Shown here one piece after another: positions 26,951 to 31,700 of a stretch of 64,000 nt of DNA. The stretch is from the NCBI GenBank assembly GCA_946578345.1, contig CAMOBD010000001.1:477-64476 (forward strand), in the 5' to 3' direction. A program made the translations under genes and the position numbers. The notes below the pieces were generated by a model. It searched no databases and was not told where the DNA came from. It saw only the letters and a list, made by a program, of their open reading frames with translations. Within the stretch, counting starts at the first letter, position 1; each line of letters begins with the position of its first letter. Origin of the DNA: an uncultured Clostridium sp. GTDB lineage: Bacteria > Bacillota > Clostridia > TANB77 > CAG-508.

Positions 26951-28327
26951 ATGAACTTTTCAGAAATGAGATTGGATCCACAACAAATTAGCTTTGAATT
27001 AATATTTAATAATTGGGGGAATAAGAACCAAACAGAGCAAATTGTTTGCTACAATAAATTTACACAGAATATTTATGTACAAGAAGAACCAAAAAGAGTA
27101 GGATATGACTTAATGAACTTTGTGAATAACTTTTATCAAATACAAAATGCTTTTATAGAATTTATACACTATATTAAAAATTTAGGAAATTTTAAATTTG
27201 AAGATTTAAACATATATAAAAATAAATTAGTTACTAATTTATCTAGCATTATGCCAGAAACATACAATTTTATAAGTTTAACGCTTGATACATTTTTATA
27301 CAATATTAAGTATGATTACGACAAAATGAACTTCCTAACAACTTTAGAAAACTTAAAAAAGAAGAATAAAGAATATTCAGAAGTTATAGATATGTACATT
27401 TTTGAATTTGAAAAATATATGCAGAATAATCAAAATATAGAACATTACGACAATGAAGATTTGTGTATTAATACTTCTATATATGGAAATTATTCCAATT
27501 TAAACCGAACATATCAACAAATGTTTATAGCTTTTTTATCTAAGTATAAAGATTTATTAGAAAATTTATATTTATACATAACAAAAACCTTTTCTAGTAA
27601 AGAAAACAAAAGTATTAATGCTAAAAGATTTAGGGGAATTCCGTTGAATATATATGCTAATGATAATAAAAATAATACAGATAATCAATTTGCCATTTGT
27701 TTACCTTATTCAGAGTCATTTTATGATATTTACAATAGTAATAAAGAACCAAAACCAGTTACTATTAGATATTTTATTCGACATTTCTCTGATTTTGTAT
27801 TTATTAGTTTATATAACATATTGCAATCTAAAGTAGCAATTAGCAGATGTAAATATTGTGAAAAGTATTTCATAACTTGTTTAGATAATAAAGAACATTT
27901 CTGTCCTGTATTAGATAATGTCGGAAATTTTAGATTTAAAAGAGTGGATATTGAAACAGATGACCTTGAGAGAACTGATAAAAAGCTAAAAATAATTAGC
28001 GAATGCGAAAAATTATACAAACCCAAAGAAAGAGGTCGTCAAGAAGAATTTGAAAACAAAGAACTAACAGCTTTATTAAGAAAACACAGAAAGAGATTAA
28101 ATCGAGAAAAGAAAACGGATAGGGGAATAGAAGAACAAAAAATCTTGTTAGGAATTGACAAGGAAATTGAAAGAAAGCACAATTTTTTAAAAGAACTATA
28201 CAGAACTGATACAAGAAAAATTGAAGACGAATTGTTTAATTTTGCTAGTTCCATAATAAAATCTTTTGAAGAAAATTGTAATAATAAAAAATATGGGAAT
28301 AAAAATGCTTTGCATAATAAGTCTTAA
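26951..28327 (+). CDS. Hypothetical protein with a Cys cluster (CKYCEKYFITC…HFCP) and a basic coiled-coil C-terminus
   Basis: A GAGGAGG RBS precedes the MNFSEM start. The product is 458 aa with no recognisable catalytic motif, so the zinc-ribbon-like cluster is the only feature I can point to. Confidence 0.3.
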   Translation: MNFSEMRLDPQQISFELIFNNWGNKNQTEQIVCYNKFTQNIYVQEEPKRVGYDLMNFVNNFYQIQNAFIEFIHYIKNLGNFKFEDLNIYKNKLVTNLSSIMPETYNFISLTLDTFLYNIKYDYDKMNFLTTLENLKKKNKEYSEVIDMYIFEFEKYMQNNQNIEHYDNEDLCINTSIYGNYSNLNRTYQQMFIAFLSKYKDLLENLYLYITKTFSSKENKSINAKRFRGIPLNIYANDNKNNTDNQFAICLPYSESFYDIYNSNKEPKPVTIRYFIRHFSDFVFISLYNILQSKVAISRCKYCEKYFITCLDNKEHFCPVLDNVGNFRFKRVDIETDDLERTDKKLKIISECEKLYKPKERGRQEEFENKELTALLRKHRKRLNREKKTDRGIEEQKILLGIDKEIERKHNFLKELYRTDTRKIEDELFNFASSIIKSFEENCNNKKYGNKNALHNKS

Positions 28328-28517
28328 GTAAACAAGCTGTTGTTTCAAAATTTATAAATAAATTTTAACTACAACAGCCTGTTTTTCTGATTAACTCCTA
28401 AAACAGCCATATTTCATTTTTATATTTAGAAGCGGGAAGTTTTCAAATGGAATATAGAAAACGTCTAGTAACTAAAATTTGAGTTAATTAGATATAGTTG
28501 TAATCTTCAAACACTTT

Positions 28518-29276
28518 TTATATTTTTTCACATTCAATTATCTGTTCTATTTCCTGTTGCAACTTTGACATTCTCTCGTCATATTGTTTATACTCATTAA
28601 AATAAACTTTATCTAACACGGACAAACCTTGTTTAAATGGTTTATTTACGAAACTATTTATAGCTGATATTATCATATCGCAACCAGGATTAAGTTTTTC
28701 AAGTTTTAGATATTCTTTAATTCTTTGATTAAGATTCAAGTTTTCATTTATACCATTGTAATAATCTAAAATTTTTTCCCATATCATAGATTTCCTATAA
28801 AACTTAAAACCAGTAAAAAACGTAATATCTTTATATATTTGTCCTTTCGTTAATTCAAATAAAAGTTGTAATCTTACTTCTTCTATTTTGTTGTCATCTA
28901 TATACAATAATTGGTCATACCCAAAAGTTGTTATAGGTTTTAAATATTCTAAATTTATATTTTGACATTTTGCACCATACTCCAACGGAAAAATTTTCTT
29001 ATCAAAATATCTCCATTCTTCTTCATTATCACGAGTATAAATTCTATCAAATATGTACTTAAAAATAGGTTTTAATTCCAAAAACTTATTTACCCAACTA
29101 TTTCTCGAGGTTGTACATAGTATAATATCAATATTCTGTTCTTTTACTTGCTGAAGTTTTTCTATCAATTTATCAATATTAGGTCTTAATAGCATTATTT
29201 CTATTTTATCATTACAGTATCCATGTACAAGTGTTTCGTCTAAATCTAAAACAATAGCTTTTGTGAAATTACTCAT
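28518..29276 (-). CDS. FCP1/NIF-like HAD-family phosphatase
   Basis: An AAGGAG RBS precedes the MSNFTK start. The N-terminal 'AIVLDLDETLVH' is the DxDx(T/V) motif in exactly the form found in NLI-interacting-factor and CTD-phosphatase-like proteins. Confidence 0.45.
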   Translation of the reverse strand: MSNFTKAIVLDLDETLVHGYCNDKIEIMLLRPNIDKLIEKLQQVKEQNIDIILCTTSRNSWVNKFLELKPIFKYIFDRIYTRDNEEEWRYFDKKIFPLEYGAKCQNINLEYLKPITTFGYDQLLYIDDNKIEEVRLQLLFELTKGQIYKDITFFTGFKFYRKSMIWEKILDYYNGINENLNLNQRIKEYLKLEKLNPGCDMIISAINSFVNKPFKQGLSVLDKVYFNEYKQYDERMSKLQQEIEQIIECEKI

Positions 29277-29290
29277 TTTAAAACTCCTTT

Positions 29291-29563: not shown

Positions 29564-29642
29564 AACAGACAGTTCCTTTCACTATAAAATGACAATTACA
29601 AAATTTAAGAAAAGCGATTACTTGTTACTGTAACCGCTTCTA

Positions 29643-30380
29643 CTATTCTATTTTCTTTGCCACAACTACTAATCTACCATCTTCTTGCGAATATTCACAA
29701 GTTGAAAGAGTTAAAAGTTGTTCGCCATACTCTGCATTTTTTCCTATATCATACAAAGAAGATTTTAAGCAATTTGAAACATAATTATTATATTCTTGTT
29801 CATTTTCAGCATCTACAAAAAAGTAATATCTGAATACATTAGTTTCATTTTTGTAATATACTCTTGAAAGAAAAACAGAAATAATTTCATACTCGCTATC
29901 TTCTTTTAATGTCGTAAAGTTGATTATAGGATGTTCAGTATAATAATTTTTGTCTTTATAATTGATTAAATCTTCAAACATAAGACCATTTTTATTTCTA
30001 TGCCCATATATCAAGTAATTACTACTTGGCTTATCTAAATCAAAATTCTTATCAAGAAAAAGAGATCCACTAGGCGAATATTCTTTTTTATAGTTATGTG
30101 TTAAATAGAAATCATTATTATTTGTTTGCAATACTGGGTAATTTATATTTGTGTTTTCTATTTCTATCCAACCAATTATGTCAGAGTTTTCCTTGTGTAA
30201 TGTTTCTAGCTCAATTATTTTATCTGATTTATTACTATTTTGATTTATGCTCTCTGTATTCCCCACAATATTTTGTATTTCTCTATTATCTTTTTTATCT
30301 TTATAATTATAATAACCTTGATAAGCAATATAAGTTATTCCTACCGAAAAGAATAATACACACAATAATCTTATGAACAC
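29643..30380 (-). CDS. srtB: Class B sortase
   Basis: Signal anchor, catalytic His in 'LIYGHRNKNG', Cys in 'TLSTCEY', an Arg after it (GRLVVV), a class-B-like length and an N-terminal extension. Confidence 0.6.
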   Translation of the reverse strand: MFIRLLCVLFFSVGITYIAYQGYYNYKDKKDNREIQNIVGNTESINQNSNKSDKIIELETLHKENSDIIGWIEIENTNINYPVLQTNNNDFYLTHNYKKEYSPSGSLFLDKNFDLDKPSSNYLIYGHRNKNGLMFEDLINYKDKNYYTEHPIINFTTLKEDSEYEIISVFLSRVYYKNETNVFRYYFFVDAENEQEYNNYVSNCLKSSLYDIGKNAEYGEQLLTLSTCEYSQEDGRLVVVAKKIE

Positions 30381-30482
30381 AGTTAATTTATTCTTGTTTG
30401 TTTTATGATGTTTTCCGTTTATTTTTCATTACTACCTCATAATATATAATAGGGTAAGTTAGTTATAACCTACCCATTTATT

Positions 30483-31700
30483 TTAGTGTTTTTTATTTCT
30501 TAATGCTATAATACCTATACTTGATAATGCTACAACTATTACTGCAAGTCCTATGTATTGTATTGTTCCAGTCTTAGGGGTATCATCTTTTTCTCCATTT
30601 TGTATTGGTGTTTTGTCAGTTTCTGTTGTGCTTGAAACATTTTGTTCTGCAATAACATAATTGCTAAAATGGTCAGTTTCTATTATAGCATAATTATTTT
30701 CTATTTTCGTATCATATTTAATTATTGTTCCATCTGTTTCTACTCTGAAAACAACAACTTTGCCTGTATCATATCCACTTGGGATAGGTAAACTTATTTG
30801 AACATTACCATTTGGTTGTATTTCTACTCCATCCGATTTTAATGTTATATCATAAGCCATAAATTTATTTGATACATTTTTTAGACTTTCTGTTATTGTA
30901 TTATAAGCCTCTCCGCTTTTAACCTCTTTAACTTCTAAAACTGTATTACTAGGTATAATACTAGTATCTGCATTTAAACTTACATTTGTTGTTTTATCTG
31001 CTGTTTCTATTACTTCAACAGGTATTCCCTCTACTGAAACGTGTGGATACATATAATACATCACATTATTCATTGAAAAGAACATTTGTCCAGAATAACA
31101 AGCATATACTCCATCGCCCCAATCACCTGTGGTACTTCCCAATTCAGTCTTTATACTACTGTCATTTAATAATTTATCAAAATGATTTTGAGATACACTT
31201 GAGAAAAATTTTGTAGAATCTGTATCTTCTGATAAGTCTAAATTTGCAGATATATGATATGATTCGTCTTTTAAATTTAGACTGTTCAATTTTTCCTCAA
31301 TATGTTTTTTATCGTTTTCATTCCAATTAGAGCATTTTATTGTAATTGTTTTGCTTAATTCATTAGCATAATTGCTATCACTTAATGAAACGGTTACTTT
31401 TGATAGGTCTATTATTCCAGTATTTGTATCTCTAACAAAAGTTGTTTCTATATGTATTCCTTCTACATCTCCAATAGTAGTTTGAACTTTTGCACCAACA
31501 TCTGAAGTCCATTGCCAATAATCATCTGGTGTACTCAAAATTTTATCTGTTTCGATAGTTTCTGGTATCTTATCAAGAATAGTTTGCAACTCTACTTTGG
31601 TTATATCTGTTGCTAATACAGCATTATTACTACAAAGGATTAATGCCAAAAGTATAAGAAATAGCATTGAAAAAATTTTAAACTTATTTTTGACTATCAT
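30483..31700 (-). CDS. Cell-wall-anchored surface protein with a sortase-B-type sorting signal (TPKTG + TM + RNKKH)
   Basis: Signal peptide, and a C-terminus reading …DDTPKTGTIQYIGLAVIVVALSSIGIIALRNKKH. It is adjacent to srtB. Confidence 0.5.
   Translation of the reverse strand: MIVKNKFKIFSMLFLILLALILCSNNAVLATDITKVELQTILDKIPETIETDKILSTPDDYWQWTSDVGAKVQTTIGDVEGIHIETTFVRDTNTGIIDLSKVTVSLSDSNYANELSKTITIKCSNWNENDKKHIEEKLNSLNLKDESYHISANLDLSEDTDSTKFFSSVSQNHFDKLLNDSSIKTELGSTTGDWGDGVYACYSGQMFFSMNNVMYYMYPHVSVEGIPVEVIETADKTTNVSLNADTSIIPSNTVLEVKEVKSGEAYNTITESLKNVSNKFMAYDITLKSDGVEIQPNGNVQISLPIPSGYDTGKVVVFRVETDGTIIKYDTKIENNYAIIETDHFSNYVIAEQNVSSTTETDKTPIQNGEKDDTPKTGTIQYIGLAVIVVALSSIGIIALRNKKH

Follow-up and report, generated by a model that had tools for sequence, protein, structure and literature searches.

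The region between positions 26951 and 31700 of a 64-kb stretch of DNA from an uncultured Clostridium sp. (henceforth the window) is likely to comprise three independently assorting units of an integrative island inserted at a tRNA-fMet gene: 1) a surface-display cassette, encoding a class B sortase and a 405-residue (aa) protein with a TPKTG sorting signal; 2) a cassette encoding a DnaD-domain protein and a phosphatase of the NIF/HAD-IIIC type; 3) a backbone gene of the island, coding for a 458-aa protein related to the DUF6076 family. An earlier reading of the region, made without database searches (the sequence-only reading), had recognised the genes for the sortase, its substrate, the phosphatase and the 458-aa protein, and had treated them as one set of cargo with no obvious role in the maintenance of the element. 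All four open reading frames (ORFs) are present where it placed them, with the motifs that it named. Its inventory was incomplete, having overlooked the 90-aa DnaD gene that partners the phosphatase, and the single cargo set gives way to three modules. The supposed lack of a role in the element fails for the 458-aa protein, whose gene keeps its place and strand in every related element sampled.

The region is part of a ~10.9-kb integrative island, whose bounds (22581..33586) are given by its attachment (att) repeats and flanking genes (Table 1), in a window of low G+C content (~24-34%). Genes for an integrase and an excisionase lie inside direct repeats of the tRNA target that are 97% identical over 70 nt, as befits an integrative element, and tRNA-fMet likewise adjoins the integrase in L001, L002, L004 and L016 (labels of this kind denote the loci sampled for comparison). 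The backbone consists, in order, of the integrase (int), the excisionase (xis), the 235/187-aa genes, the oppositely oriented DUF6076 gene, a variable slot, an XRE-family helix-turn-helix (HTH) gene, also on the opposite strand, and the genes for a DUF6809-like and a 200-aa protein. This order is kept in L001-L006, L011-L015 and L028, but only partly in the more distant L022-L024. In every one of these related islands spanning the slot (L001-L006, L011-L015, L028), a gene of the 458-aa type occupies the same place, between the 187/235-aa genes and the variable slot, and runs counter to its neighbours, while the genes of the variable slot differ at each locus. Where sister islands carry another allele, the protein encoded in this position has 385 or 535 aa, and in the more distant L022 an oppositely oriented DUF6076 gene, of 518 aa, lies near the integrase. 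Since position and opposite orientation are fixed while the other genes of the stretch differ, the 458-aa gene is, as judged from synteny, a backbone or hallmark gene of the island family and not cargo.

The remaining genes of the region assort differently, as is apparent from comparison with two close relatives. Positions 22812-29641 of the window, from the integrase through the DnaD gene, match L028 at 94.5%, and positions 29595-33335, from the sortase through the 200-aa gene, match L011 at 93.8%. The mosaic breakpoint coincides with a hairpin at 29610..29641: similarity to L028 ends at 29641 and that to L011 begins at 29595. Compared with L011, the window has a clean insertion of 1,075 bp (28520-29595) made up of the genes for the phosphatase and the DnaD protein. 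Relative to L028, the sortase and surface-protein genes replace five genes, including one for a DnaA-type ATPase. Although the L011 island is ~92-94% identical in other respects, its DUF6076 allele is a different one, and in a second sample (L030) an identical surface protein and sortase are followed by the DnaD gene. As to whether homologous elements share the same genes, the sortase-substrate pair recurs and the DnaD-phosphatase pair is found again in L006 and L028, but the slot genes otherwise differ from locus to locus. Pairwise ratios of nonsynonymous to synonymous substitution rates (dN/dS) against close relatives are 0.15-0.40 for all five genes (0.23 for the 458-aa gene, for which the value against L004 is to be disregarded, as that ungapped comparison ignores an indel), which shows that all five are maintained under purifying selection.

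The surface-display cassette bears out most of what the sequence-only reading had claimed for it. The sortase scores above the cutoff of the class B equivalog profile TIGR03064 (171.1 bits against 153.75, with residues 2-239 covered) and aligns with the SrtB of Bacillus anthracis (1rz2/2oqw) at E 1e-35, with YGHR, TLSTC and GRLVV conserved. The catalytic triad of H127 (YGHR), C228 (TLSTC) and R236 (GRLVV) is intact and in register with the solved SrtB enzymes. The adjacent protein begins with a signal peptide (MIVKNKFKIFSMLFLILLALILCSNNAVLA) and ends in EKDDTPKTGT, a 22-residue hydrophobic stretch and RNKKH. This is a full sorting signal (TPKTG being residues 374-378, codons 30567-30581) and the protein is the only ORF with a complete one in the 64-kb window. 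Its homologues fall into 154 clusters sharing the signal and a stalk of ~170 aa (DITLKS.G..IQPNGKV.ISIPIP...DHFS.YVLAE) that is followed by a linker; the N-terminal heads vary, one of them being a leucine-rich repeat (LRR) domain. The protein matched no Pfam family, only sub-threshold NCBIfam models and PDB entries at E >0.05, and nothing was recovered with it from IMG/VR. The likeness that had been drawn to clostridial signals holds in that TPKTG is close to the (S/P)PXTG signals of Clostridioides difficile SrtB substrates (PMC4155245), and breaks down at position 1, which is Thr and not Ser or Pro, as it also is in the homologues, 114 of 120 of which carry TPKTG.

An integrative element carries the pair, and sister elements have it too, as expected of the mobile sortase-substrate pair that had been proposed. 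A class B sortase is encoded directly downstream in 10 of the 11 loci reached via homologues of the surface protein, and in all 11 an XRE HTH gene lies directly upstream of the surface gene on the other strand. Conversely, searches based on the sortase led to four loci (L030-L032, L034) with a TP(K/A)TG protein directly upstream of it. The sorting motif tracks the sortase clade, since sortases at least 57% identical adjoin (D/E)TP(K/A)TG proteins and ~36% identical relatives adjoin NPYTG or PPYTG proteins, as expected for a dedicated pair. The gene pair is thus, by gene order and motif, a real and recurring mobile cassette, and one of a kind already described: the element 023_CTn2 of C. difficile RT023 encodes a sortase and putative I/TPKTG substrates, proposed to be dedicated to the element's own sortase, and it was suggested that I/TPKTG proteins may not suit the core sortase of this species (PMC6814731). 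In both cases a sortase gene adjoins those of putative substrates, the mobile element that carries them is integrated in a gut clostridium, and the signal is of the TPKTG type rather than S/PPKTG. The likeness is one of motif and context, as 023_CTn2 is a large conjugative transposon with substrates predicted to bind collagen, whereas the present element is an ~11-kb island without transfer genes, whose substrate has an unclassified head on the widespread stalk and whose cassette lies under a divergent XRE regulator.

With the core SrtB of C. difficile (PDB: 4ux7, 5gyj; E ~1e-25) the island sortase shares the class B fold and, by prediction, Cys-dependent cleavage of xPKTG between T and G. It differs in the Thr at position 1 of the signal and is closer to the B. 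anthracis enzyme. The SrtB proteins of the isd systems of B. anthracis and Staphylococcus aureus (1rz2, 2oqw, 1ng5) are its best sequence matches among solved structures, with the YGHR and TLSTC motifs, the Arg that follows the Cys, the length and the N-terminal anchor in common. Unlike them, it has no isd or NEAT-domain genes nearby, its signal is TPKTG rather than NP(Q/K)T(N/G), and it is partnered by a stalk protein that resembles an adhesin. Clostridial plasmids are another place where class B sortases are encoded.

Sortase-anchored aggregation substances promote conjugation in Gram-positive bacteria, and the sortase and TPKTG protein could accordingly serve horizontal transfer, as an aggregation or mating adhesin aiding mobilisation of the island by a co-resident conjugative element. 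Profile searches of the island's proteins detected no transfer genes of its own, and conjugation genes with their own sortase and thioester-domain (TED)/SpaA adhesin adjoin the same tRNA (window 1..22200). The recurrence of the sortase-substrate pair in several types of element is also in keeping with such a role. However, the island yielded neither a relaxase nor an oriT, its relatives occur in contexts without a nearby conjugative element, similar pairs are found outside any recognisable island (L031, L032) and the integrase is broken. We therefore regard a role in transfer as unlikely, and favour a surface-display cassette that assorts on its own.

The second unit is centred on the phosphatase. 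Its ORF, which contains VLDLDETLVH, extends to 29321 (267 aa); the most likely start is the ATG at 29276, since nearly all close homologues start there, giving a protein of 252 aa. The protein scores above the cutoffs of PF03031 (31.3 bits against 21.8, over profile positions 1-90 of 160 only) and TIGR01681 (43.6 bits against 35.75), and the HAD motifs D11/D13/T15, T55/T56, K113 and D127/D128 are conserved in 52 sequences. No PDB entry matches its sequence at E 0.1 or better, and therefore only fold comparison is informative. The AlphaFold2 (AF2) model (pLDDT 94.2) has as its top Foldseek matches Tim50, CTDSP2, MDP-1, CTDNEP1 and Fcp1 (E 5e-5 to 2e-3, TM-score ~0.3-0.5, identity 14-18%), and NIF/CTD-like phosphatases are also its top structural matches in a viral library. 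Taken together, profiles and model predict a catalytically complete NIF/HAD-IIIC enzyme. With the FCP/SCP phosphatases and MDP-1 (Tim50 4qqf, CTDSP2 2q5e, CTDNEP1 8ujl, Fcp1 3ef1, MDP-1 1u7p) it shares a cap-less HAD core, DxDxT and motifs II-IV. Unlike FCP1 and dullard, to which its identity is low, it falls far short of the dullard-type TIGR02251 (20 bits against a cutoff of 139.15), lacks a BRCT domain and has an extra C-terminal helical domain of ~90 residues (163-251) specific to this bacterial family.

The affinity to FCP1/NIF-like enzymes seen by the sequence-only reading is thus upheld by profile and predicted fold; the epithet eukaryote-like was an overstatement, as the family comprises more than 139 clusters in gut Clostridia, one member being named "NIF family HAD-type phosphatase" by NCBI. 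The majority of its genes are chromosomal and lack a DnaD gene beside them, and chromosomal paralogues are common; IMG/VR yielded a single uninformative contig end. A chromosomal paralogue is found in relatives in a similar NrdD/DUF2207 neighbourhood (L007, L008). The gene directly after a widespread chromosomal orthologue (630 collection blocks) encodes a PAP2-family phosphatase (L017-L020, 6001..7518), a possible hint at an envelope or lipid-phosphate context.

In the window, the DnaD gene lies between the sortase and phosphatase genes, and the phosphatase gene directly follows a 90-aa DnaD gene in three islands (the window, L006 and L028). The same slot also holds a DnaA-type ATPase in L028 and L001, and therefore looks like a replication-type module with add-ons.

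The third unit, the 458-aa protein, lies in an ORF of up to 463 aa (26936..28327). The true start is placed at the ATG at 26951, because AGGAGG is found 6 nt upstream and the homologues have 457-459 aa. The Cys-rich segment CKYCEKYFITC...HFCP spans residues 300-319, and C300, C303, C318 and C352, with the signature CxxC-x14-C...C, are invariant across 8 divergent members; the basic helical tail has 26% K+R. Residues 268-390 align to positions 22-148 of the 168 of the DUF6076 profile (PF19553), with which the signature is shared. Among its homologues, P0008 passes the gathering cutoff (45.5 bits, E 9e-12), the L006 allele reaches 21.5 bits, and the L011 and L022 alleles carry precomputed DUF6076 matches, P0008 and the 518-aa protein of L022 being bona fide members. 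These relationships weakly suggest that the 458-aa protein is a divergent DUF6076 member. It is accordingly not the orphan that it had been taken for; the description as uncharacterised stands, and it has not been placed in a well-characterised family, because DUF6076 is itself uncharacterised, a literature search for it having returned no papers.

The known alleles measure 385, 411, 418, 458, 518 and 535 aa. Those of the homologous slot (385-535 aa) share the four Cys and an N-terminal G[TY][SD]L..F.NN motif, while the N-terminal region diverges strongly and the zinc ribbon is kept. The N-terminal ~260 residues of the 458-aa protein are confined to a handful of clusters. Searches with this protein matched nothing in IMG/VR and a single metagenome-assembled genome (MAG) among the GTDB representatives. 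Two candidate operator or origin sites were noted in the adjoining DNA: a palindrome, GTTGCTTTAATTTA / TATATTAAAACAAC, beside the start of the 187-aa gene (26727-26757), conserved in L028, L004 and L011, and a promoter/operator-like block, GATATTTATTTCCACCAAATATTGAT (~26878-26905), which precedes the 458-aa gene and is conserved solely in islands that carry the 458-aa allele. The stretch 26704-26950 holds this block and a palindrome of the GTTGTTG...CAACAAC type. The zinc ribbon and basic helical tail suggest a nucleic-acid-binding regulator or maintenance factor, and this would fit the gene, because it is divergent to the 187aa-235aa-xis-int operon and because the upstream block is conserved in an allele-specific manner.

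A second alternative is that the DUF6076 protein acts as a defence or exclusion factor, for instance in abortive infection, with a hypervariable N-terminal sensor under diversifying pressure. The divergence of the N-terminal region beside a retained zinc ribbon, and the entirely different allele of L011 in an island otherwise closely similar, form a pattern typical of defence and immunity genes. Yet PADLOC returned no match for four different DUF6076 alleles, nor for the other backbone genes, and profile searches detected no nuclease, ATPase or other effector domain. Moreover, the repressors of satellites and prophages show the same pattern of allele replacement, which for this reason does not separate defence from regulation. 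We hence consider a defence factor distinctly less probable than not, indeed rather improbable.

The sequence-only reading itself supplies a third alternative, namely that a single mobile element carries the four genes as incidental cargo, the 458-aa protein being an orphan accessory without a role in it. The rarity of this protein type could be so understood: homologues form 4 clusters among 5.8 billion proteins, and when 1.8 billion representatives were searched exhaustively with a profile, no more than 5 proteins emerged, two new distant relatives among them. The lack of matches in tblastn searches of phage and plasmid collections and among defence records, and the transcription of the gene against the flow of the island genes, point in the same direction. 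Against this, the homologous gene keeps its slot and orientation in every related island sampled while the adjoining genes change, it is under clear constraint by its dN/dS, and the other genes assort separately; the cargo reading accordingly strikes us as quite doubtful.

From these considerations we favour a model of three units acting within one island. In the first, the divergent XRE regulator would control the surface-display cassette. The 405-aa precursor would be exported via its signal peptide and held in the membrane by the C-terminal helix and RNKKH tail, until the membrane-anchored sortase, using H127, C228 and R236, cuts TPKTG between T and G and links the protein covalently to peptidoglycan. 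The build of a variable head on a conserved stalk would be that of an adhesin. The enzymatic activities, the specificity of the sortase and the adhesin role are predictions drawn from sequence. In the second unit, the DnaD-domain protein and a putative Mg-dependent NIF/HAD-IIIC phosphomonoesterase would make up the 1,075-bp cassette, the phosphatase presumably being a captured paralogue of the common chromosomal gene and the cassette probably an accessory of the island's replication-type module. In the third, the DUF6076 protein would most likely bind nucleic acids as a zinc-ribbon factor, and would either control the divergent 187aa-235aa-xis-int operon or act in its service.

Several observations weigh against this model. 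The 458-aa protein itself reaches only 16.1 bits (E 0.0098) with PF19553, below the Pfam gathering cutoff of 23.5. A profile of the zinc-ribbon region found nothing in the PDB below E 0.68 and gave no tie to a known DNA-binding fold, and the AF2 model, built from the 5 available homologues, is poor (pLDDT 46.7), too poor for a fold search. Position, zinc ribbon and basic tail are the sole grounds from which we infer the regulatory role. The link of the phosphatase to DnaD or replication may be a matter of mere hitch-hiking, because chromosomes also carry the phosphatase by itself. Profile and PDB searches recognised neither a fold nor a family for the head domain of the surface protein. Finally, the reading frame of the integrase is not intact. 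A 1-nt frameshift near 23250 (23240-23260) splits it, reading across the frames restores ...GDKWVNSNRVFTKYDGSPMHPETP, and the identical split is found in L011 (8011..9202), L012 and L028 (462..1355), from several independent metagenomes. The integrases of L006 and L004 are split or truncated at other points, and an intact one (398 aa) occurs only in the L001 type. The island may have lost the ability to move unaided. An alternative genetic code as the cause of the split was ruled out, as the simple 1-nt frameshift restores conserved sequence.

That the island is a decaying remnant, its modules leftovers without current function, would accord with this frameshift in several samples, with the further decay of L016, which has no sortase, and with the absence from the window island of the DnaA-type ATPase of L028, but five intact ORFs with complete catalytic and sorting motifs, the low dN/dS values and the L030 sample, in which the DnaD gene again comes after the same surface protein and sortase, make it highly improbable.

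A more far-reaching extension of the three-unit model, which we offer as a long shot, is that the DUF6076 proteins are master regulators or replication/maintenance factors of a so far undescribed family of small integrative gut-Clostridia islands targeting the 5' half of tRNA-fMet. The promoter in each att repeat would keep a promoter-bearing 5' half at the junction, the allele-specific N-termini would sense a helper or phage, and the SrtB/TPKTG and DnaD-NIF pairs would be exchangeable modules aiding transfer and replication. Irrespective of this extension, sortase-substrate pairs borne on elements alter gut anaerobes at their surface and can disseminate traits for colonisation, and the present pair moves between small islands as a discrete cassette. 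Its TPKTG signal defines a large family of stalked surface proteins and tracks a particular SrtB clade. DUF6076 gains a concrete genomic role to test, that of an invariant, oppositely oriented island gene, and a recurrent gene pair of DnaD and NIF phosphatase is placed on record. Current understanding is not overturned by these results, which chiefly offer experimental targets in Clostridia that are difficult to culture, and the phosphatase comes from a named, if unstudied, bacterial family.

Table 1. Features of the tRNA-fMet island and its target, in window coordinates
Feature	Position	Strand	Evidence or remarks
tRNA-fMet, anticodon CAT, integration target	22316..22391	-	ARAGORN
Left att repeat: copy of tRNA 5' half plus 27 nt of upstream sequence	22581..22650	.	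70-nt direct repeat
Tyrosine integrase, split into 297 aa + 82 aa	22951..24142	-	Pfam Phage_int_SAM_5 + Phage_integrase
Excisionase-type DNA-binding protein, 65 aa	24606..24803	-	TIGR01764, 29.4 bits vs cutoff 28.8
Two backbone genes, 187 aa + 235 aa	25416..26703	-	tblastn, 49-63% identity in L001-L005
458-aa backbone protein	26951..28327	+	Helical N-terminal region, C4 zinc ribbon, basic helical tail
NIF/HAD-IIIC phosphatase, 252 aa, with family-specific C-terminal helical domain	28518..29276	-	PF03031, TIGR01681
DnaD-domain protein, 90 aa	29291..29563	-	PF07261, 47.1 bits vs 22; TIGR01446, 31.5 bits vs 24.95
Terminator-like hairpin closing the surface-protein/sortase cassette	29610..29641	-	12-bp stem, T-rich tail
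Class B sortase, 245 aa, GTG start, N-terminal membrane anchor	29643..30380	-	TIGR03064
Hairpin between substrate and sortase genes, possible attenuator	30452..30475	-	10-bp stem, terminator scan
405-aa surface protein	30483..31700	-	Signal peptide, variable head, ~170-aa stalk, TPKTG, transmembrane (TM) helix, RNKKH
XRE-family HTH regulator, backbone	31839..32183	+	Divergent from surface-protein gene; PF01381, 39 bits
DUF6809-like small protein + 200-aa protein, backbone	32196..33075	-	tblastn in relatives
Right att repeat: displaced tRNA 5' half	33517..33586	.	Direct repeat

Among the other backbone genes, the excisionase is conserved in all relatives, and the 187-aa and 235-aa genes are represented in L001 by one fused gene of 433 aa. 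The latter two had no family match in profile libraries, PADLOC or the PDB, and a rolling-circle Rep identity for them was rejected, the REP_ORF2-G2P match, seen in L006 only, being insignificant (E 0.29) and the PDB offering nothing. At the other end of the island, a 16-nt inverted repeat (31799-31838) lies beside the XRE gene; tblastn identity in relatives is 71-94% for the 200-aa protein and 26-88% for the DUF6809-like small protein, homologues of which carry DUF6809. Small ORFs are also present between the att repeats. With the complete island as query, megablast found nothing but the tRNA in phages and plasmids.

Three copies of the tRNA-fMet 5' half occur (22353-22395, 22581-22650 and 33517-33586), the second and third copies sharing 27 nt of upstream sequence. 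The first and second are only 228 bp apart, and this arrangement may be the remnant of a second insertion. Each att repeat is preceded by a perfect (12/12) promoter-like TTGACA-N17/18-TATAAT (22664..22636; 33601..33572); integration into the 5' half of a tRNA gene, with the promoter supplied by the island, is unusual. To the right of the island lie chromosomal genes for a DUF2207 protein, two NrdD proteins and NrdG, the NrdD paralogues (anaerobic ribonucleotide reductases) being in tandem at 36568..38451 and 38696..41047 and followed by the activase NrdG.

Two of the sampled loci types depart from the common plan. L016 (698..2905) is a decayed island in which just an XRE HTH, a 167-aa ORF and a truncated TPKTG protein of 313 aa are left, abutting tRNA-fMet and chromosomal genes. 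L022-L024 (2503..5455) combine the same module of HTH, TPKTG protein and sortase with a tubulin/TubZ-like protein between two DnaB_C fragments, DUF3846 and DUF6809, which hints at a plasmid- or phage-like relative of the islands.

Directly to the left of tRNA-fMet, window positions 1..22200 make up a conjugative-element region (e.g. 6984..8183, 10268..12850, 13721..14392, 15988..17352, 18049..18675, 20343..20735, 21382..21828). It encodes a T4 coupling protein, a VirB4/TraG-like P-loop fragment, two pilin-like proteins of type IV secretion systems (T4SS) and a phage replisome-organiser N domain. Its own sortase, which is not of class B, is accompanied by an 860-aa TED/SpaA adhesin, and two different sortase-adhesin systems are therefore found on two adjacent mobile regions.

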